DNA of 64,000 bases, taken from sequence record PX393108.1; one strand, written 5' to 3'. Shown piece after piece: positions 12,563 through 63,701 of this stretch. Below the pieces are notes generated by a model. That model was not told where the DNA came from. It saw nothing but the letters and a program-made list of their open reading frames with translations, and searched no databases. The DNA comes from a phage. Position 1 is the first letter of the stretch. Every line of letters begins with the position of its first letter. The position numbers and the translations under genes were made by a program.

Positions 12563-13787
<1,225 letters not shown>

Positions 13788-13790
13788 TTA

Positions 13791-14021
13791 TTATTTCTCA
13801 ACCAATGATTGAATATAATCATGCAAGTCTTTAGATGCTTTACCCCACTTATTTTGGTATTCATTTTTAAGATTAGCCCGAGATTGAGCTAATAAAACAT
13901 CATTAGTTGGAGGTAAAGATTCTAACCGTTGAATCTGGCGTCCATAAATCATTGCAGCCATCTCGGATTCATAAATCAATCCTTTGAGATGTTCAAATTG
14001 ATGCCATGAAATCATTTGCAT
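13791..14021 (-). CDS. hypothetical protein (76 aa)
   Basis: ORF track. Confidence 0.5.
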   Translation of the reverse strand: MQMISWHQFEHLKGLIYESEMAAMIYGRQIQRLESLPPTNDVLLAQSRANLKNEYQNKWGKASKDLHDYIQSLVEK

Positions 14022-14311
14022 TTATCCTCTTTTAACTCTTGACGATAATAACATATCATAGTTTTCTGATCATGTACATATCGTTTTACATCATTAAGCC
14101 AAATGCGAAATTCCTGGGAATCTTCAAATGGCATACCGACCCAAGCTTTACCATCAATAACTTTAACTTGCCAAGATAGTTTAGCTTCATCATATGACTT
14201 TATTTGTACAGGCCAATTAGGATGAACTGTTTCTTTCTTTACTTCTAGAGGCTTTGTCGAACAACCAACTAGAAGACCAATAGATAATATTACTGCTGAT
14301 AGTTTAATCAT
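14012..14311 (-). CDS. putative lipoprotein (99 aa)
   Basis: N-terminal signal peptide with lipobox LLVGC|S. Confidence 0.55.
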   Translation of the reverse strand: MIKLSAVILSIGLLVGCSTKPLEVKKETVHPNWPVQIKSYDEAKLSWQVKVIDGKAWVGMPFEDSQEFRIWLNDVKRYVHDQKTMICYYRQELKEDKCK

Positions 14312-14661
14312 TTAGAAAGGTCCTGGATGTCTTCTGCGAACTTGTTGAAGGAGTTGTTGATTTGTTTTTCAACCAATCCTGGCTTATGAGCCACCACATC
14401 CGCCTTCTTTGCGTCTTTGCGCAGTTTTTCATTTTCACGCTCAATAGCAGCAATTGCCTCACGATTTTTATTATTCATCGCATCAATATAATTATACTGA
14501 ATTCGCAAATTATTTAATGCTAAAGCGTTTTCATTGGCCGTTTTTGTAATTTCTACAACAGACGTTTCTAATCTTTCAATTTTATTTTTTAAAATTAAAG
14601 AAGTTCCGCCCAATGCAATTACAATTAATAGCAAGCCTGCTGTCGTATTACTTAATTGCAT
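14308..14661 (-). CDS. membrane-anchored coiled-coil protein (117 aa)
   Basis: N-terminal hydrophobic helix GLLLIVIALGGTSLIL followed by a charged helical region. Confidence 0.55.
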   Translation of the reverse strand: MQLSNTTAGLLLIVIALGGTSLILKNKIERLETSVVEITKTANENALALNNLRIQYNYIDAMNNKNREAIAAIERENEKLRKDAKKADVVAHKPGLVEKQINNSFNKFAEDIQDLSK

Positions 14662-15158
14662 AAAGTTTTAATAACCTCTATAATATCGTCTTGAGAAAGA
14701 CCGTTAATTAAAATATGATGTTCAGCCGGAGATTTAGAAATTTTAAAGCATGCCTCAACATCTTCTGCCATATCTGATGCGCTACGATTTGGATTACTAA
14801 TTCCAAGACGATGTTTTCCCGTCAAAGGATTAACGATGATATAGCATTTACAGTTGTTAATATGAACATTAGGTTGAGTCTGATTAATGAACACATCACA
14901 ATCATATTTCGCAAGCTGATTTTCTAAAAAGACTTTCATCTCCTCAACTGCATCAGGAAGCATATCACGGGCTTGCTCAAGACGACGATTTCGATATTCT
15001 TTAATGGTCGTTTTCCGCTTGACTTGCTTAGCTAAATCTTTCTTAAGATCGGTGATATATCCAACTCGACGATTTCCTTTAAATACAGAAATCCCATCTG
15101 TAGTATCACCGTATGCTTCAACGACCATTTCAGTAGTAATAAGCTGTAAATCCATCAT
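14652..15158 (-). CDS. alc: Alc, transcription terminator on cytosine-containing DNA
   Basis: 168 aa, size and position between pseT and rnlA as in T4. Confidence 0.8.
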   Translation of the reverse strand: MMDLQLITTEMVVEAYGDTTDGISVFKGNRRVGYITDLKKDLAKQVKRKTTIKEYRNRRLEQARDMLPDAVEEMKVFLENQLAKYDCDVFINQTQPNVHINNCKCYIIVNPLTGKHRLGISNPNRSASDMAEDVEACFKISKSPAEHHILINGLSQDDIIEVIKTLCN

Positions 15159-15219
15159 AAAGTCCTCATGTTATGTCAGTAAGACTACTGTAACACAACA
15201 CGAGGGACTTGTAAACAGC

Positions 15220-16807
<1,588 letters not shown>

Positions 16808-57958: not shown

Positions 57959-58705
57959 TTATCCTCGGATAAGTTTAAAAATTGAACAATTTAGCGGGTA
58001 TCCTCTTTTCAGTTTAAGTTTATCAATAAAAGACAAGTTTTGATACCGCTCTACACCTTGAATAATTTTATCACACATATCATATTGCATTTCTGCTTCT
58101 GACAACTTTTTCACAGTTTTCCAATCAGAGCCTTTAAGAAGAACGTTCAATTTAACAACTTCAGCGCCTTCTGCTATACGAGAACCATCAATACGAGCTT
58201 TGAGTGCTATAATCGTTAGCTTAACGTCAGAAGTTTGTTTTGATTTAGAAAGCTGAGAAATGTGCTCAATTCGGTTTTCACGTTTTTTCTGTATAGCTTT
58301 AATTTGATTATAAGTCTTTTTGATTTTAGCCCATTTCTTTTCATCTAAATTTAGTTTATGAACTTTTTTCGCAGATGAACGACCAATTCGCAAAGCAAAT
58401 AAATCACGCTTTTCAATCAACTCTTCTAAAGTATAATCAGAACGAAATGTATTGTACTTTTTCTTTACTGCAATAACATTCCCTTTAATGTATCCAACGT
58501 TATTATCAAAACGTTCTAATGATAATTTCTCTCCTTCAATACGATTATCAAAAGGTTCTCCTGAGTAAGCGCAAACTTTCTGATCTAAAATGTTCTTAAT
58601 GTAATTGAAGTCTAAGTTAAAATCTTTAGAACGTCTTTTAGCTGATGCCTGAGTATGCTCTAGACGACGTGTAATTTTACGAATTTGATTTTTAGACAGT
58701 TTCAT
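57959..58705 (-). CDS. srd: Srd-like protein (sigma-factor-related decoy)
   Basis: 248 aa basic protein in the T4 srd position between dda and the mod genes. Confidence 0.75.
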   Translation of the reverse strand: MKLSKNQIRKITRRLEHTQASAKRRSKDFNLDFNYIKNILDQKVCAYSGEPFDNRIEGEKLSLERFDNNVGYIKGNVIAVKKKYNTFRSDYTLEELIEKRDLFALRIGRSSAKKVHKLNLDEKKWAKIKKTYNQIKAIQKKRENRIEHISQLSKSKQTSDVKLTIIALKARIDGSRIAEGAEVVKLNVLLKGSDWKTVKKLSEAEMQYDMCDKIIQGVERYQNLSFIDKLKLKRGYPLNCSIFKLIRG

Positions 58706-58735
58706 ATTTTTCTCACGGACGGGTTAACTACTTAT

Positions 58736-58765
58736 ACTATAACATTTTTACTTCAGCTTGTAAAC
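58736..58765 (-). promoter_or_regulatory. T4 early-type promoter (-35 GTTTAC, -10 TATAGT)
   Basis: Reverse complement of gtaaac 58760-58765 and actata 58736-58741. Confidence 0.45.
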
Positions 58766-58821
58766 AACTTTATGAAAAATGCTTTAAAACTTTCATGGTA
58801 TAATGAATCTAAGTCCTTCCA

Positions 58822-59424
58822 TTATAGATTAAATCCTTCAAAATCAAGAGTATAGATAGTGTATGTTGAATACTTTTTATACTCGTATCTATCCGCAATT
58901 CTAAATACACTTCCAGCTGGTATCATTACTTCTTGTTCATCTGAAACTAATTCCATATTACGATAACGATGGCTATCCGGAAATTTAAAACTCGGACTAT
59001 ATTCTTTACAACGTAGAGCTTTTATAGCATACTCCTGAAAATTAAATACCATAGGAGCTTTGAATTCAAAAATAACTTGCGTGTTGTATTCTAATCCAGA
59101 AGCAAAATGCAGAGCTATATTTTTATCATATGAAGCTGATACTACTTTATCGAATGTAATAATATCAATTCCTTGATTTAACACCTGTTTAGTCTCAACT
59201 GGAACACCTCTCCAAAGAGGTTTATCGTTTGGAACCAAACGAGATTTGATTATTTCATTTAACCAAGAATGATCGTCTGGCTTATTAGTAATACAATGAA
59301 TTAAAAGTTCAATTTCTGATAAATTAAATCCTTCAGAAAGTAATTCTTCGCGAATAGAAGCACGCACAGATGCATCCATTGATTTGATTTTAAAATCTTT
59401 TAATTGCATTGCTGAATATTTCAT
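58822..59424 (-). CDS. modB: Mod-family ADP-ribosyltransferase (200 aa; downstream copy)
   Basis: LWRG (Arg), SASY (Ser-x-Ser) and EQEVMIP (ExE) ART motifs. modA versus modB assigned only by gene order, and the lengths do not fit that order cleanly. Confidence 0.7.
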   Translation of the reverse strand: MKYSAMQLKDFKIKSMDASVRASIREELLSEGFNLSEIELLIHCITNKPDDHSWLNEIIKSRLVPNDKPLWRGVPVETKQVLNQGIDIITFDKVVSASYDKNIALHFASGLEYNTQVIFEFKAPMVFNFQEYAIKALRCKEYSPSFKFPDSHRYRNMELVSDEQEVMIPAGSVFRIADRYEYKKYSTYTIYTLDFEGFNL

Positions 59425-60056
59425 TCAACTACCTCAATATCATACACTTTAAATGTTCCAAATGAATCGTGTAATTTTTCTTTTGAAATAGAAGTTATTT
59501 TATACTTTCCAATTGGAATCATCCATTCTTGTTCACGCACAATCATCATTAAGTTATCAGTACGTTCTGAATCTAATCCATCAGTATCTTCATATGTATA
59601 CTTAAACTCAGTATTAGGAGAAGAAAGTATAATATCGCTGATATGGTCAGAGTAATTAAAAGCTTTATCAGTTTTTAAGCGAAGTACTATTTCAGTGAAA
59701 TATTCAGCATAAGAAAAAGAACACGCTGTATGCAAACTAGTAGTAAATGAATCTACTCTGTTCGTTGAAAACACTTCTCCGACTTGTAAATCTTTAATGA
59801 GTTCTTTTGTCGATTTTGATATACCACGATATAACTGATAAGGTGATTCAGTTAAATGCTTTTTAATGATTTTATTCAACTGCCGATGAAGAGCTTCATT
59901 CTTTTTGGCTTCCATACATTGCCAAAGAACTGACTGTTCAAAGTCAGTAAATTTTTCACAGACCTTTTTATACATATCATATTGAAAATCGACACTTTCA
60001 GCTTTTATAGATAACTGTTCAACATCTGCGAGATTAATAATCATGATAGCCTCCAT
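59421..60056 (-). CDS. modA: Mod-family ADP-ribosyltransferase (211 aa; upstream copy)
   Basis: LYRG, STN and EQEWMIP ART motifs; early promoter upstream. Symbol tentative. Confidence 0.7.
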   Translation of the reverse strand: MEAIMIINLADVEQLSIKAESVDFQYDMYKKVCEKFTDFEQSVLWQCMEAKKNEALHRQLNKIIKKHLTESPYQLYRGISKSTKELIKDLQVGEVFSTNRVDSFTTSLHTACSFSYAEYFTEIVLRLKTDKAFNYSDHISDIILSSPNTEFKYTYEDTDGLDSERTDNLMMIVREQEWMIPIGKYKITSISKEKLHDSFGTFKVYDIEVVE

Positions 60057-60070
60057 ATACTTCAGAAGCT

Positions 60071-60100
60071 ATCATATCATTGTTAGGAAGGAAAGTAAAC
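60071..60100 (-). promoter_or_regulatory. T4 early-type promoter upstream of the mod genes
   Basis: Reverse complement of gtaaac 60095-60100 and atcata 60071-60076. Confidence 0.45.
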
Positions 60101-60111
60101 AACTTTTTGAA

Positions 60112-60294
60112 TTATTTTGCCCAGGGAGCCCAGGGCGGAGGGTCAAGATGGTATGAAGCTAGTTCTTCTAGAAGAGCATCTGGGGCTTCAATTCCATAAT
60201 TCTGTAATACTATACGGTACTCTTTCTTATAATCACTAGAATCATTCTGGATATTCGTAGAATGATTATCTTCTAACATCTCAAATAAATCCAT
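60112..60294 (-). CDS. hypothetical acidic protein (60 aa)
   Basis: ORF track. Confidence 0.45.
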   Translation of the reverse strand: MDLFEMLEDNHSTNIQNDSSDYKKEYRIVLQNYGIEAPDALLEELASYHLDPPPWAPWAK

Positions 60295-60302
60295 ATTAAT
60301 TC

Positions 60303-60773
60303 CTAGCGATAAAAACCAAATTGACGATTAGCTTCAATAATCTTTCTTTCTTCTTCGGACATTCTCCAGCGTAGTCCAACATCAAAATGAGCCCAGACCA
60401 TCTTAACGAATGCATTTATATCTTTAATATCTTCAATAATGAATGTTTTACTTTTAGAAGGTTGACTCGCTAATTTAACTTTATCGTCTTCAAACAGGTC
60501 AAAAAGACCATATTCATGAGCTCTTTTATAGCCTTTAATAGTTAAAGCTTCAGAAGAAGAAAATGGTGAATCAGTATTCTGCAAAATATCTTCAGTATGC
60601 TTTATAATTAGAATAACATTTTCTGGATATTTTCTTTCTTTTATATCTTTAATTAAAATATCCGGATTTTCTGCTAAAGGAATAATTAATGAGCACTTTT
60701 TATCAAGTGTATTTACTGATTTACCTTCTTTAGACATAAATTCTATTGAATAATGTTTTGCTACTTCAATCAT
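60303..60773 (-). CDS. hypothetical protein (156 aa)
   Basis: ORF track. Confidence 0.55.
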
Positions 60774-60918
60774 GTGATTTCCTCTTGCCTACTAATGGGC
60801 CGTCAGGAATTTTGTTTTCCTGGATATATTTCTCATTTTCTTCCATCATTTTACTGCCAATTTTAAGAAGCAAATCCAATGCTTCATTTGCTTTAGCCTT
60901 GGCCTCTTCTAGCGTCAT
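60766..60918 (-). CDS. small helical protein (50 aa), not in track
   Basis: Hand-translated [36 protein letters not shown]...; its 3' end overlaps the next ATG (ATGATTGA). Weak SD. Confidence 0.35.
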
Positions 60919-60926
60919 ATCTCTGT

Positions 60927-61130
60927 TCACGATTTATCCCCATAGATGTCTCTCATCAATTTAAGCGCTGAGCGTTCTAATTTCTTTTCTTTCTCAACGC
61001 TAATCATTGATTTCATCCATTCTTCTGATTCGTTCTGCATTTCTTTATTTGCTTGTTCAACCCAACCATCATCAATGTACATTGAGTTTGGTCTATTGAA
61101 CCATTCAAACATTTTCTTCAGAACTTTCAT
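60927..61130 (-). CDS. hypothetical protein (67 aa)
   Basis: ORF track. Confidence 0.45.
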
Positions 61131-61590
61131 TTGTTTTACCTAAAACAACAGTAGGAGCATCATCAAATTCATGAATTTTTAGCAAATTTGGATGTAAACT
61201 ATTCCACACAGAAGAAATAAAGTATGATAAAGCATCTTCACTCACAATTATAAATTTATTTCCTTTATCTATTTTCCAACTATATAGTGAATCGTACGAA
61301 TAAAAAGATAAAGGATTATCATTATATTGTTCTGCGCTAACATTAATGTATTCGGATTTAGTAAATGCTTCAATTGCTCTAAATGGAATATTTGGTACAG
61401 TTTCAATGATACCAATCTTTTTAAGCTTTATTTCAGCATCTTCTGGAACTGGCATTGAAACGAAATTTTCTACGAGATACATTGGGTCACAATAACCCTT
61501 ATCAATCATTACTGCTACGGTAATTGGAACGTCTTTAGCAAACGACATGCTATTACTGCTAATATACATTTCAAACAAAATCGCTTCCAT
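61105..61590 (-). CDS. hypothetical protein (about 161 aa)
   Basis: ORF track frame; start set at the ATG preceded by SD GAGGAAAA. Confidence 0.5.
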
Positions 61591-61598
61591 AATTTTCC

Positions 61599-61940
61599 TC
61601 AATCGCAAGATGTAGATGAACAACTAGAATCACAAGAACTTCCACACGAATCGCCCGTCCATACATGAACAGGAACATTAGTGTCATATGAATCAGAACT
61701 AGACTGTGTATTCTGTGTATTAGATGATGTAGTAGGTGTTGACCAGCGCCAAGGATTTTTATAATATTCTTGGGCTTCTTCATAAGTCATAGTAACTGCT
61801 TCTACTGTTCCATCTCCCATATAAACATATTCAACTACAGTTAAAGGAAGGTAGTCATTTGAAATAGGAACTACACCTTCTCCGGGAGTCGTAGAGAAAA
61901 AATCCGTAAAGAAGCTTTTAAACCAATTAAAGATAAACAT
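61599..61940 (-). CDS. hypothetical protein with Ser/Thr- and Cys-rich C-terminal tail (113 aa)
   Basis: C-terminus ...[15 protein letters not shown]...[15 protein letters not shown]. Confidence 0.5.
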
Positions 61941-62146
61941 TACAAAAAGCCTCTCTTGAATTCGACTTGCTTCTCGCCATAATCATATCGAATCTCTGAA
62001 TTAAATTCGACAGAACCATCTGCGTACATCATAAATGAATGCACAACAACTTCTGTAGACCATGGCTGTAGTTCATATTTCTTCATTACATGCCGTGAAA
62101 TGATAATATCTAAATCTTCATTTGGTTTAATCCAGCGATTTAACAT
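61940..62146 (-). CDS. hypothetical protein (68 aa)
   Basis: ORF track; consensus-like early promoter upstream. Confidence 0.5.
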   Translation of the reverse strand: MLNRWIKPNEDLDIIISRHVMKKYELQPWSTEVVVHSFMMYADGSVEFNSEIRYDYGEKQVEFKRGFL

Positions 62147-62172
62147 AGTGCTCTCCTCTATAAGATAATTCT

Positions 62173-62202
62173 ATTATACCATACTCATTTTAGAAAGTAA
62201 AC
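62173..62202 (-). promoter_or_regulatory. T4 early-type promoter (-35 GTTTAC, -10 TATAAT)
   Basis: Reverse complement of gtaaac 62197-62202 and attata 62173-62178. Confidence 0.5.
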
Positions 62203-62218
62203 CGGTAAAATGAAAAAA

Positions 62219-62236
62219 GGACTCCCGGAGGAGTCC
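62219..62236 (-). terminator. rho-independent terminator after soc
   Basis: GGACUCC / GGAGUCC stem followed by UUUUUUCAUUU in transcript orientation. Confidence 0.6.
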
Positions 62237-62242
62237 TTGAAA

Positions 62243-62488
62243 TTATTCACCAGTTACTTTCCACAAATCTTCGTTTGCAGTAATCCATTCAGTACGTTGA
62301 TTTTCTTCATATACTGTAGAATATGCTGCTTTTTCTGAAGGGAATGTCTGGTAATGAGAGCCAGAAATTTTGTGAACGTCAGAATAAAGAGGGAAAGCTA
62401 CAGAAATTTCCTTTCCTTCAATTTTCTTATTTCCATCTAATTTCTGCTCAAACGTTTTGATATTAACATAACCGCGAGTACTAGCCAT
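62243..62488 (-). CDS. soc: Soc small outer capsid protein
   Basis: 81 aa; MASTRGYVNIKTFEQKLDGNKKIEG... matches recalled T4 Soc; late promoter upstream. Confidence 0.9.
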   Translation of the reverse strand: MASTRGYVNIKTFEQKLDGNKKIEGKEISVAFPLYSDVHKISGSHYQTFPSEKAAYSTVYEENQRTEWITANEDLWKVTGE

Positions 62489-62504
62489 GTAATTCTCCTT
62501 TTAT

Positions 62505-62714
62505 TTAAATTACATGATTATTTATAATAAATTCTCGTGGAACGCTAAAATATCCAATTTTAGTTAATATAACAACATCACCGTTAATAACTACCGGAGA
62601 ATAATCGTCTGGAGCATTAAACTTCCAATGAGCTCTAATATTATATCCATCAGAACCAAATGCTCGACTAGCCGGTCTCCCGGCTTTTTGCCATGCATAA
62701 AAATCAAATTTCAT
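62505..62714 (-). CDS. hypothetical protein (69 aa)
   Basis: ORF track. Confidence 0.5.
   Translation of the reverse strand: MKFDFYAWQKAGRPASRAFGSDGYNIRAHWKFNAPDDYSPVVINGDVVILTKIGYFSVPREFIINNHVI
62520..62527 (-). promoter_or_regulatory. T4-type late promoter (TATAAATA) for soc
   Basis: Reverse complement of tatttata about 30 nt upstream of the soc ATG, inside the 3' end of the preceding ORF. Confidence 0.55.
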
Positions 62715-62911
62715 TTTGAATGCTCTATAATTAATTTTAAGGCTTCTTCATGCACCTTACCTAATTGTATATGTCCAGTTTTAATTGTGTAAGCTTTGTG
62801 GAGCTGATTAGATAAGAGCTCACATACGAGCTCCTTGTCATAATTTTTAAATAGCTGGTCAATACGTTTCTTGTGGGCTTTCTTAAGCTGGCGTTTATTT
62901 AAACGAGCCAT
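62711..62911 (-). CDS. hypothetical basic protein (66 aa)
   Basis: ORF track; ATGA overlaps. Confidence 0.5.
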   Translation of the reverse strand: MARLNKRQLKKAHKKRIDQLFKNYDKELVCELLSNQLHKAYTIKTGHIQLGKVHEEALKLIIEHSK

Positions 62912-63429
62912 TAATAACCTCGGTCTTGACGAGCGAAGTTTTCAGCATTTTTCAGATAATAAAGTTTAAAGATTTCTTCAGCAGTAAGGCCGAGACCTTG
63001 GAACATGTTCAGAACGAAATGAAGAATATCAATCATTTCGAATTTAATTTCCAACTGGTCTTGAGGAGACAAATCAGTAATTAGAGTTTCACGACGTTCA
63101 CCATGCTGCGACTTCCAAGGCTTCCATACAGCAGATGCATCTTTTTCACCATTGCTCATACCACCAAGAGAAGTCAGAAGTTCACGGAATTCATCATCAA
63201 TGTAATCTTTCTGATTACGCAGCCAATCGACAACTTCGCCTGCAGTAGCCAAATCATCAGGATGACGGTTATATTCAGGTTTATCTTTAGCTAAACGAAC
63301 CTGCAAAGATTTCTGCATATCAAGCATAACTTGCAGTGGGTCTTTTTCGTCACCGAGAATATCCCAGTATTCATTTTGAGCTTTATCAGCGCCTTCGATC
63401 AGTTGCGAACATTCATTAAAGTAAGCCAT
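62911..63429 (-). CDS. 56: gp56 dCTPase/dUTPase (MazG-like pyrophosphatase)
   Basis: 172 aa from MAYFNECSQLIEG... with SD GGAAAA; the track's longer N-terminus is hydrophobic and lacks an SD. Confidence 0.85.
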   Translation of the reverse strand: MAYFNECSQLIEGADKAQNEYWDILGDEKDPLQVMLDMQKSLQVRLAKDKPEYNRHPDDLATAGEVVDWLRNQKDYIDDEFRELLTSLGGMSNGEKDASAVWKPWKSQHGERRETLITDLSPQDQLEIKFEMIDILHFVLNMFQGLGLTAEEIFKLYYLKNAENFARQDRGY

Positions 63430-63500: not shown

Positions 63501-63701
63501 ATGGTACAAAAATTAATGGCACTTGTTAATGCCATAAAAGGTAATAAAAAACGTATAGCTTTTACTATTTCTGCTATGGTAGGAATTTTACTTTGGAATT
63601 TTGTTTTATCACCAATTGCTATTGCTCATGGTGTTAATATTCCAGTAATTACTCTTGATACATTCGTAGATTTAGCATTTGCTTTAGTTGGGTTAATTTA
63701 A
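63501..63701 (+). CDS. small two-helix membrane protein (66 aa) on the opposite strand
   Basis: ATG preceded by AAGGAGGA; hydrophobic segments IAFTISAMVGILLWNFVLSPIAIA and IPVITLDTFVDLAFALVGLI; lies between genes 56 and 61. Confidence 0.4.
   Translation: MVQKLMALVNAIKGNKKRIAFTISAMVGILLWNFVLSPIAIAHGVNIPVITLDTFVDLAFALVGLI

Follow-up and report, generated by a model that had tools for sequence, protein, structure and literature searches.

The genes between soc and modB have been on the T4 map since the 1990s. In T4, modA.2 to mrh.2 correspond to T4p022 to T4p028 (map 13198 to 15232). All seven belong to the early RNA class, the protein of mrh.1 being listed with the temporal class "NA," and mass spectrometry recorded six of the seven proteins (PMC9697503 supplements). 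A viable T4 deletion, Delta12, spans the region (PMC6070864), and a genome-wide CRISPRi-ART knockdown screen of T4 gave mrh.1 the score "Semi-Fit" (p = 0.069) and the other six genes "Not Fit" (PMC11879866 supplement). Taken together, the deletable region and the knockdown scores mark these genes as accessory rather than housekeeping. Published genetics exist within the block only for srh and mrh, which influence late transcription of T4 when the temperature is 42°C or the host is an rpoH mutant (PMC6070864). Mrh was reported to assemble into a megadalton oligomer, and a role on the sigma-32 axis was attributed to it (PMC8076793). No biochemical mechanism for any of the seven proteins was found in the literature searched.

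The analyzed window, 64,000 nucleotides of the phage sequence record PX393108.1, contains at 60112-62146 seven tightly packed open reading frames (ORFs), all on the minus strand and in T4 order, between soc and modB. Judging from sequence and gene order, this block is probably (roughly 80%) the Tequatrovirus counterpart of an early accessory operon of T4, mrh.2-mrh.1-mrh-srh-modA.4-modA.3-modA.2. Its seven genes are already catalogued T4 genes and are not new. The features of the locus are as follows:

62217-62238, minus strand, intrinsic terminator after soc (9-bp GC-rich stem, then a T run), upstream block boundary
62173-62201, minus strand, putative early sigma-70 promoter for mrh.2 through modA.2 (G-TTTACT, 17 nt, TG-n-TATAAT, extended -10)
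61940-62146, minus strand, mrh.2 orthologue, 68 aa, 98.5% identical to T4 Mrh.2, phrog_1873
61599-61940, minus strand, mrh.1 orthologue, 113 aa, 99% identical to T4 Mrh.1, PF23836 (DUF7206)
61105-61590, minus strand, mrh orthologue, 161 aa from ATG, 76% identical to T4 Mrh, PF24070 (T4_MRH)
60927-61130, minus strand, srh orthologue, 67 aa, 97% identical to T4 Srh, phrog_2441
60766-60930 (GTG, 54 aa) or 60766-60918 (ATG, 50 aa), minus strand, modA.4 orthologue, 94% identical to T4 ModA.4, phrog_2681
60303-60773, minus strand, modA.3 orthologue, 156 aa, 95% identical to T4 ModA.3, PF24070
60112-60294, minus strand, modA.2 orthologue, 60 aa, acidic, 98% identical to T4 ModA.2
60071-60099, minus strand, putative early promoter for modB-modA (TTTACT-17-TATGAT with TG), downstream block boundary
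60036-60081, minus strand, predicted hairpin in which the region over the -10 element of the modB promoter pairs with the modB Shine-Dalgarno sequence and AUG

The source genome of the window is a Tequatrovirus; its DNA is 97 to 99% identical to that of many Tequatrovirus genomes whose annotations name these genes, and gene order and position from soc to modB agree with the annotated T4, PP01, and T2 regions. All seven products have one-to-one T4 orthologues of equal length with 76 to 99% protein identity, six of them at 94 to 99% and Mrh, the exception, at 76%. Orthologues of each gene occur in T4 and about 500 Tequatrovirus genomes, and dN/dS across 12 Tequatrovirus loci was 0.05 to 0.28 for every gene, indicating purifying selection. 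The composition profile of the region showed no anomaly, and an Rfam search at E ≤ 1 over 58500-63000 gave no match.

The initial annotation had described seven minus-strand ORFs of 50 to 161 codons, and all of them are present and conserved. The ORF at 60766-60918, which it reported missing from the ORF track, is indeed absent there, being shorter than the 60-aa cutoff, and appears as 60766-60930 with a 25-aa minimum. The statement that no motif was recognizable did not hold, as ModA.3 and Mrh match PF24070, Mrh.1 matches DUF7206, and all seven products match PHROGs families. The label "uncharacterized" is accurate for five of the genes and inaccurate for srh and mrh, which are named and genetically studied. 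The outcome under which the idea of an accessory block would have been abandoned, that all seven are T4 orthologues with housekeeping roles, was found in its first half only: the T4 orthologues number seven of seven, the housekeeping roles none. The shortness of some ORFs (50 to 68 codons), together with the lack of a Pfam family for ModA.2, ModA.4, and Mrh.2, could suggest noncoding chance ORFs. This explanation is refuted by conservation and proteomics data and deserves practically no credence: dN/dS of the short ORFs was 0.05 to 0.16, the PHROGs matches reach 1e-31 or better for all, T4 ModA.2, ModA.4, Srh, and Mrh.2 are among the proteins detected by mass spectrometry, and orthologues are retained in other genera.

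The locus shares with T4 the seven genes, their order, strand, and overlaps, both early promoters, and the flanking genes soc and modB. Unlike in T4, modA.4 begins with GTG instead of ATG, Mrh is of the T2/PP01 type, not the T4 type, and, outside the block, soc.1/soc.2-like ORFs stand in place of segF. The GTG (60930) overlaps the srh stop codon as GTGA exactly as the T4 start does as ATGA, so ModA.4 is likely to be 54 aa and not 50 aa long; the start codon at that position is ATG in 8 of 12 relatives and GTG in the other 4. The T2/PP01-type allele explains why Mrh is only 76% identical to its T4 counterpart. As a result of the present comparison, mrh and mrh.2 are each found to comprise two recombining allele classes, those of mrh.2 encoding 68 and 70 aa and those of mrh being accompanied by recombinants. 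For mrh, positive selection was judged not to apply (dN/dS 0.28, raised dS, two allele classes with recombinants); the high dS in the divergent alleles points to allele exchange instead.

Early promoters had been proposed to frame the block, and both are present with a T4-type consensus at positions conserved in relatives. The site at 62173-62201 was the top-scoring one in the region (10/12 consensus matches). The position of both promoters is kept in JS10 and MM02 (Dhakavirus and Mosigvirus) as well as in 11/11 other Tequatrovirus loci, and that of the modB-proximal one in every other genus sampled except Roskildevirus (six of seven). As a class, promoter-like sites were not enriched over shuffles (25 found versus 19.9 ± 5.1), and within the block, a search for middle promoters (MotA box) and late promoters yielded a single weak MotA-like match and no TATAAATA. 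The terminator after soc has an annotated counterpart at the same relative position in MM02 and Merlin. The strong sigma-70 early promoter just downstream of it would drive all seven genes, and since the cistrons overlap or are separated by gaps of ≤8 nt, one mRNA with translational coupling is expected. Early transcription of the block in the window phage is predicted from promoter sequence and position, the RNA class being T4's own.

The predicted hairpin in the modB leader had a minimum free energy of -17.8 kcal/mol (z = -2.97). Across 9 sequences representing 8 genera, 14 consensus pairs were recovered, of which 3 show compensatory changes, and 89% of cells were paired compared to 38 to 50% in slid registers; because the arms overlap the -10 element, the Shine-Dalgarno sequence, and the start codon, part of this conservation is not evidence for pairing. 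The hairpin would form only on transcripts reading through from the block. As a point added by the present work, this conserved structure is expected to mask the ribosome-binding site of modB on such transcripts; with modB left untranslated on them, the gene would be expressed only from its own promoter.

At the protein level, Mrh and ModA.3 both match PF24070 over the full profile length (144.2 bits, 3e-42, and 131.7 bits, 2e-38, respectively; gathering cutoff 24.4), and the present work adds that the two are paralogues by this shared profile. A sequence search with Mrh returned 109 clusters at 74 to 98% identity. When fusions and more distant members of the MRH family were sought with an HMMER profile, only 13 clusters among 1.84 billion representatives were recovered, all of 40 to 166 aa and with no extra domains. 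Structure prediction, suggested in the initial annotation as a check, was informative for one of the two paralogues. The AF2 model of ModA.3, built from an alignment to which divergent sequences recovered with HMMER had been added, was confident (pLDDT 80.4) and had no significant structural neighbor in the PDB. The modeled MRH fold appears to be an orphan, a confident model without a solved structural relative. The Mrh model, from a shallow alignment of 49 sequences, was unusable (pLDDT 39), and the searched copy of the PDB contained no entry corresponding to the cryo-EM structure of Mrh that was announced in 2021 (PMC8076793). Mrh.1 matched PF23836 with 103.1 bits (gathering cutoff 25.6; 1.5e-29) over profile positions 1 to 107 of 107; in the cross-genus alignment it has a hydrophobic N terminus and a conserved Ser/Asp/Cys-rich C-terminal tail.

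In each of the eight Tevenvirinae genera sampled, the Mod ADP-ribosyltransferase gene is directly preceded by an MRH-like gene and modA.2, in that order, with the two cistrons overlapping or ≤14 nt apart, and a ModA.4-like ORF precedes the pair in six of the eight (Tequatrovirus, Dhakavirus, Mosigvirus, Moonvirus, a Klebsiella phage, and Roskildevirus). ModA.2 was found in 993 phage records and the ADP-ribosyltransferase in 1014, the breakdown by taxon being nearly identical for the two; scanning viral_contigs with ModB yielded no more than 6 loci. No protein of the region is more conserved than ModA.2 (99.5% mean identity), which has a conserved MDLF N terminus and an invariant PPPW-PW C terminus across genera. 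Its MDLFEML segment was considered as a sliding-clamp-binding tail of the kind present in T4 gp43, gp33, and gp55 ([ST]LDFL[FLY]) and rejected, the composition being similar and the register different. Many database records name ModA.2 to ModA.4 "molybdenum ABC transporter," a name-collision error. ModA.4, ModA.3, and ModA.2 may constitute an older, more widely conserved module, which would be made just before the neighboring Mod ADP-ribosyltransferases and would probably work with them.

The products of the block as a whole are best regarded as putative small modulators of host takeover and not as enzymes. Two other assignments of function were weighed. That ModA.4, ModA.3, and ModA.2 are dedicated Mod partners (regulator, chaperone, targeting subunit, or transient antidote) and not independent modulators is suggested by the gene neighborhood just described, by the near-equal distribution of ModA.2 and the enzyme, by the conservation and invariant motif of ModA.2, and by the toxicity of ModA and ModB when expressed alone (PMC2988021, PMC3014915). 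We consider this reading unlikely, since the support consists of association (co-occurrence and gene order), a separate promoter serves the ADP-ribosyltransferase genes, with the predicted hairpin uncoupling their translation from the block mRNA, and knockdown of T4 modA.2, modA.3, or modA.4 had no fitness effect, although an essential antidote should matter (PMC11879866). Its widest form is equally doubtful: a three-protein Mod partner module across Tevenvirinae might set the timing or targets of ModA and ModB, for example, through target choice for ADP-ribosylation or RNAylation or through restraint of a toxic enzyme, with the modB hairpin enforcing the order of expression and Tequatrovirus Mrh as a duplicate of the core, a fold lacking any solved relative, redeployed on the sigma-32/RNA polymerase axis.

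The initial annotation had considered host interaction or anti-defense plausible for an accessory block beside ADP-ribosyltransferase genes. The accessory, early, and dispensable character and the position beside the mod genes were borne out, and host interaction is supported for srh and mrh by the sigma-32/heat shock phenotype (PMC6070864, PMC8076793); the anti-defense part found no backing, as no resemblance of the seven proteins to PADLOC, NCBIfam, or PDB entries was detected and a PDB sequence search with all seven concatenated returned 0 matches. That at least one of them counters an immune system absent from laboratory strains would fit small, early expressed genes dispensable on laboratory E. 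coli, the divergent recombining alleles of mrh and mrh.2 in otherwise near-identical phages, as expected at host-range or arms-race loci, and the content between soc and modA.4, which varies among genera. It is nevertheless quite improbable, given that the family matches are to phage-only families of unknown function and nothing further, that dN/dS is ≤0.28 everywhere with the divergent alleles also high in dS, and that no publication found gives any of the seven such a role.

As a discovery, the block carries little weight, its genes having long been mapped in T4 and being present in roughly 500 sequenced relatives. It does expose a real gap, in that five early proteins which the best-studied phage expresses have no function assigned to them. 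The tie of the MRH-like gene and ModA.2 to an ADP-ribosyltransferase gene in every sampled genus singles them out as specific partner candidates, and the modB hairpin offers a simple, testable case of gene regulation.

Srh, whose gene shares 26 nt with the 3' end of mrh, is the postulated sigma-32 decoy, and the sequence argument for this was reexamined. Residues 23 to 60 align with E. coli RpoH 244 to 279 at 29% identity (E = 0.002, BLASTP, single pairwise comparison). In a shuffle test, P was 0.003 for the window and JS10 orthologues and 0.21 for the Gelderlandvirus orthologue, hhalign gave a probability of 1.2% over 19 columns for Srh versus sigma-32, and no Pfam sigma-domain match to Srh was obtained at E ≤ 0.1. 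The similarity of Srh to sigma-32 region 4.2 is short and marginal, and the widely propagated label "decoy of sigma-32" stands on a genetic phenotype and this marginal sequence argument. By the postulated decoy mechanism, Srh would mimic the C-terminal region 4.2 of sigma-32, and Mrh, as a very large oligomer, may act on the same sigma-32/RNA polymerase axis.

Among known systems, T4 Srd and AsiA resemble Srh in being small, early, nonessential or conditionally needed, and acting or postulated to act on host sigma factors, and have no sequence relation to it. The srd gene is encoded in the same dispensable region of T4, and Srd is a postulated sigma-70/sigma-S decoy; for AsiA, binding to sigma-70 region 4 is biochemically established, whereas the case for Srh consists of genetics and marginal similarity. 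Rki and cIII are likewise small phage proteins that alter sigma-32 activity or stability in infection, the target invoked for Srh and Mrh (PMC3486835). According to works cited there, Rki is a J-domain protein working via DnaK and cIII stabilizes sigma-32, and neither domain is present in Srh or Mrh. The closest parallels to the modB leader are the hairpins of T4 e, soc, 49, and I-TevI, in which the 3' arm covers the translation start (Shine-Dalgarno sequence and AUG) and the 5' arm coincides with the gene's own promoter or lies upstream of it, so that only transcripts from the proximal promoter are translatable; modB is not among the hairpin genes listed there (PMC3014915). The modB leader is predicted to share this geometry, with the difference that a late promoter rescues translation of e, soc, 49, and I-TevI, whereas the proximal promoter of modB is early.

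Between soc and modB, the gene for a Mod-type ADP-ribosyltransferase, seven minus-strand ORFs were confirmed at 60112-62146, exactly where the initial annotation had placed a block of uncharacterised genes. Neighbouring ORFs overlapped or were at most 8 nt apart, with TAATG common to mrh.2 and mrh.1, an overlap of 26 nt between mrh and srh, GTGA common to srh and modA.4, and an overlap of 8 nt between modA.4 and modA.3; a Shine-Dalgarno sequence was recognisable for most of them. The 2.5-kb stretch shared 97-99% identity with hundreds of Tequatrovirus genomes (541 matching records, 498 with at least 80% query coverage; closest match KFS-EC3, 98.8%). The PP01 and T4 annotations between modB and soc list modA.2, modA.3, modA.4, srh, mrh, mrh.1, and mrh.2, and since the genes are named in these records and match T4 proteins, the block is an already catalogued T4 gene set.

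Genes of the block (minus strand), with protein identity to T4
modA.2, 60112-60294, 98%
modA.3, 95%
modA.4, 94%
srh, 97%
mrh, 61105-61590, 76%
mrh.1, 61599-61940, 99%
mrh.2, 61940-62146, 98.5%

The ORF noted earlier as missing from the ORF track is modA.4, which falls below the 60-aa cut-off. Its likely start is a GTG at 60930 overlapping the srh stop, a position occupied by ATG in 8 and by GTG in 4 of 12 relatives. In many phage records ModA.2, ModA.3, and ModA.4 (60112-60930) carry the label molybdenum ABC transporter, periplasmic molybdenum-binding protein ModA. No transporter family was matched by any of the three in Pfam or NCBIfam scans, and the label, which evidently arose from confusion with the bacterial gene name modA, calls for caution with these database annotations.

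All seven genes were under purifying selection (dN/dS 0.05-0.28, 12 Tequatrovirus loci). In T4, all are classed as early RNAs and the proteins ModA.2, ModA.3, ModA.4, Srh, Mrh, and Mrh.2 were detected, Mrh.1 being the sole product of the block with the protein temporal class "NA" (PMC9697503 supplements). In the genome-wide T4 dCas13d knock-down, modA.2, modA.3, modA.4, srh, mrh, and mrh.2 were "Not Fit" and mrh.1, which alone in the block had a marginal score, was "Semi-Fit" (0.79, p = 0.069) (PMC11879866 supplement). T4 orthologues were thus found for all seven genes and a housekeeping role for none, and five of the seven proteins are without an assigned function even in T4. The proposal of an accessory, host-directed block adjoining the mod genes was borne out, and the initial interpretation as a whole is partly supported, an anti-defence function being no more than a hypothesis.

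The block is preceded by the soc terminator and framed by two early promoters.

Signals flanking the block
62238-62217, minus strand, soc hairpin terminator, upstream of the block
62201-62173, minus strand, early promoter after the soc terminator, TTTACT-17-TATAAT with extended -10 TG
60099-60071, minus strand, early promoter just before modB, TTTACT-17-TATGAT with TG

Promoter-like sites as a class showed no excess over shuffled sequence (25 versus 19.9 ± 5.1). The positions of these two, already proposed as the framing promoters, were kept in 11 of 11 other Tequatrovirus loci, in Dhakavirus, and in Mosigvirus, and the modB-proximal one also in Moonvirus, the Klebsiella T4-like phage, Gelderlandvirus, and Kanagawavirus. 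Both agree with the published layout of T4 early promoters, UP/-35/TGn/-10 (PMC2988021). In early mRNAs, GGAG is the motif cut by the T4 endoribonuclease RegB (2010 review). This motif occurs in the Shine-Dalgarno regions of mrh.2 (GAGGAG, 62150-62165, minus strand) and modB (GGAGG, 60049-60054, minus strand), so these cistrons may be RegB targets.

Gene content was compared with the soc-dda region of seven further genera, with ORFs classified by phmmer (Dhakavirus JS10, Mosigvirus MM02, Moonvirus Merlin, Klebsiella phage Roth17, Gelderlandvirus CGG4-1, Roskildevirus Cronus, and Kanagawavirus Q7622). The frame of soc, Mod ADP-ribosyltransferase, srd, dda.1, and dda was constant in seven of eight genera; in Q7622 the soc end was occupied by a lipase gene, and a separate soc gene was not seen in the soc-dda region. 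A ModA.2 orthologue was encoded directly upstream of the ADP-ribosyltransferase gene in all eight genera; its N-terminus, MDLF, was conserved, and P52, P53, P54, W55, P57, and W58 were invariant. Before it, every genus encoded an MRH-like protein of 154-174 aa, the two cistrons overlapping or lying at most 14 nt apart, and a ModA.4-like ORF stood ahead of this pair in six of eight. The other genes were less constant: srh was present in Tequatrovirus, Dhakavirus, and Gelderlandvirus, mrh.1 and mrh.2 were patchy, and mrh proper was found in Tequatrovirus only. By tblastn, ModA.2 was found in 993 and the ADP-ribosyltransferase in 1014 phage records, with nearly identical taxon breakdowns. From this association we infer that ModA.4, ModA.3, and ModA.2 may act as a partner module of the ADP-ribosyltransferase, and this conserved linkage is a testable lead.

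ModA.2 was also the most conserved product of the region (mean identity 99.5%, 12 Tequatrovirus loci). In the same loci the dS of modA.2 was unusually low (0.035 versus 0.09-0.95 in neighbours), an estimate that is noisy for a gene of only 60 codons; it could reflect nucleic-acid-level constraint or a recent sweep.

All seven products matched PHROGs families, and no match to the block proteins was obtained in PADLOC, NCBIfam, or a PDB sequence search. Mrh and ModA.3 each matched Pfam PF24070 (T4_MRH) along its full length and are paralogues, about 16-23% identical according to the alignment used. Mrh.1 matched DUF7206, and no Pfam family was found for ModA.2, ModA.4, Srh, and Mrh.2. Mrh.1 has a hydrophobic, aromatic-rich N-terminal segment and a C-terminal tail rich in Ser/Asp/Cys, in which the last cysteines (SCD/CD) are kept across genera. 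Among 1.84 billion representative proteins, a profile built from Mrh and ModA.3 gave only 13 clusters, all of at most 166 aa and none a fusion, and by this search the family is restricted to T4-like phages. The Mrh model from a shallow alignment was unusable (pLDDT 39). For ModA.3, an alignment enriched with divergent family members gave a confident alpha/beta model of four strands and four helices (mean pLDDT 80.4, pTM 0.73). A megadalton assembly of Mrh has been reported with a 3.3 Å cryo-EM structure "not shown" (PMC8076793), and no such chain was present in the PDB copy searched; the apparently orphan MRH fold is a second testable lead.

The weak match of Mrh to its T4 counterpart is no peculiarity of this phage. 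Two classes of Mrh allele exist, the T4 type and the T2/PP01 type, plus recombinants; this phage has the T2/PP01 type. In a large protein database Mrh formed 109 clusters at 74-98% identity, and nearly all ModA.3 clusters were at 92-99%. Mrh.2 had alleles of 68 and 70 aa, and soc was likewise mosaic. Divergent mrh and mrh.2 classes occurred among otherwise 95-99% identical Tequatrovirus genomes, and chimeric mrh alleles were seen, e.g., in L004 and L009. As dS climbs together with dN, the pattern looks like allele exchange and not positive selection.

The label "decoy of host sigma32" on Srh is founded on a postulate. Srh residues 23-60 aligned with the C-terminal region 4.2 of Escherichia coli RpoH (244-279) at 29% identity (single-comparison E 0.002), with a shuffle-test p of 0.003 for this protein and the Dhakavirus orthologue and of 0.21 for that of Gelderlandvirus. 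Profile comparison gave a probability of 1.2% over 19 columns, and no Pfam sigma domain was matched in Srh. The resemblance is sufficient to motivate the decoy hypothesis and too weak to establish homology.

Outside the block, the soc-gene 56 interval (62505-62911, minus strand) contains two short ORFs (69 and 66 aa), whose equivalents in T2 are annotated soc.1 and soc.2. In T4 this place is taken by the homing endonuclease gene segF, which this phage therefore lacks. In the gene 56-primase interval, where T4 has dam, a 66-aa hydrophobic ORF was found (63501-63701, plus strand); several relatives (W143, bov10K1, and SfPhi01) have a hypothetical protein there on the opposite strand.

The mechanical modB ORF (59421-60056, minus strand) begins four codons upstream of the T4 start (MEAIM...). 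Because this upstream ATG falls within the GGAGG Shine-Dalgarno sequence, translation almost certainly begins at the ATG at 60044, with a product of 207 aa as in T4. The modB leader forms a predicted hairpin (60036-60081, minus strand; MFE -17.8 kcal/mol, z = -2.97), in which 60081-60064, spanning the modB promoter's -10 element and ending about at the predicted transcription start, pairs with 60054-60036, containing GGAGG and the modB AUG. In eight Tevenvirinae genera, sampled by nine sequences, the helix was kept, with 14 RNAalifold pairs, 3 of them with compensatory changes, pairing in 89% of cells versus 38-50% with the partner slid, and five double-sided changes versus 1.5 expected, although both arms are also constrained as promoter and translation signals. 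In read-through mRNA from the block both arms would be present and the modB ribosome-binding site hidden; transcripts started at the proximal promoter would be without the 5' arm and escape this masking. The hairpin should thus silence modB on read-through transcripts and leave proximal-promoter transcripts translatable, which makes it a further testable lead. The modB leader follows the same logic as the hairpins of T4 e, soc, 49, and I-TevI described in the 2010 review of such structures (PMC3014915), whose list does not include modB.
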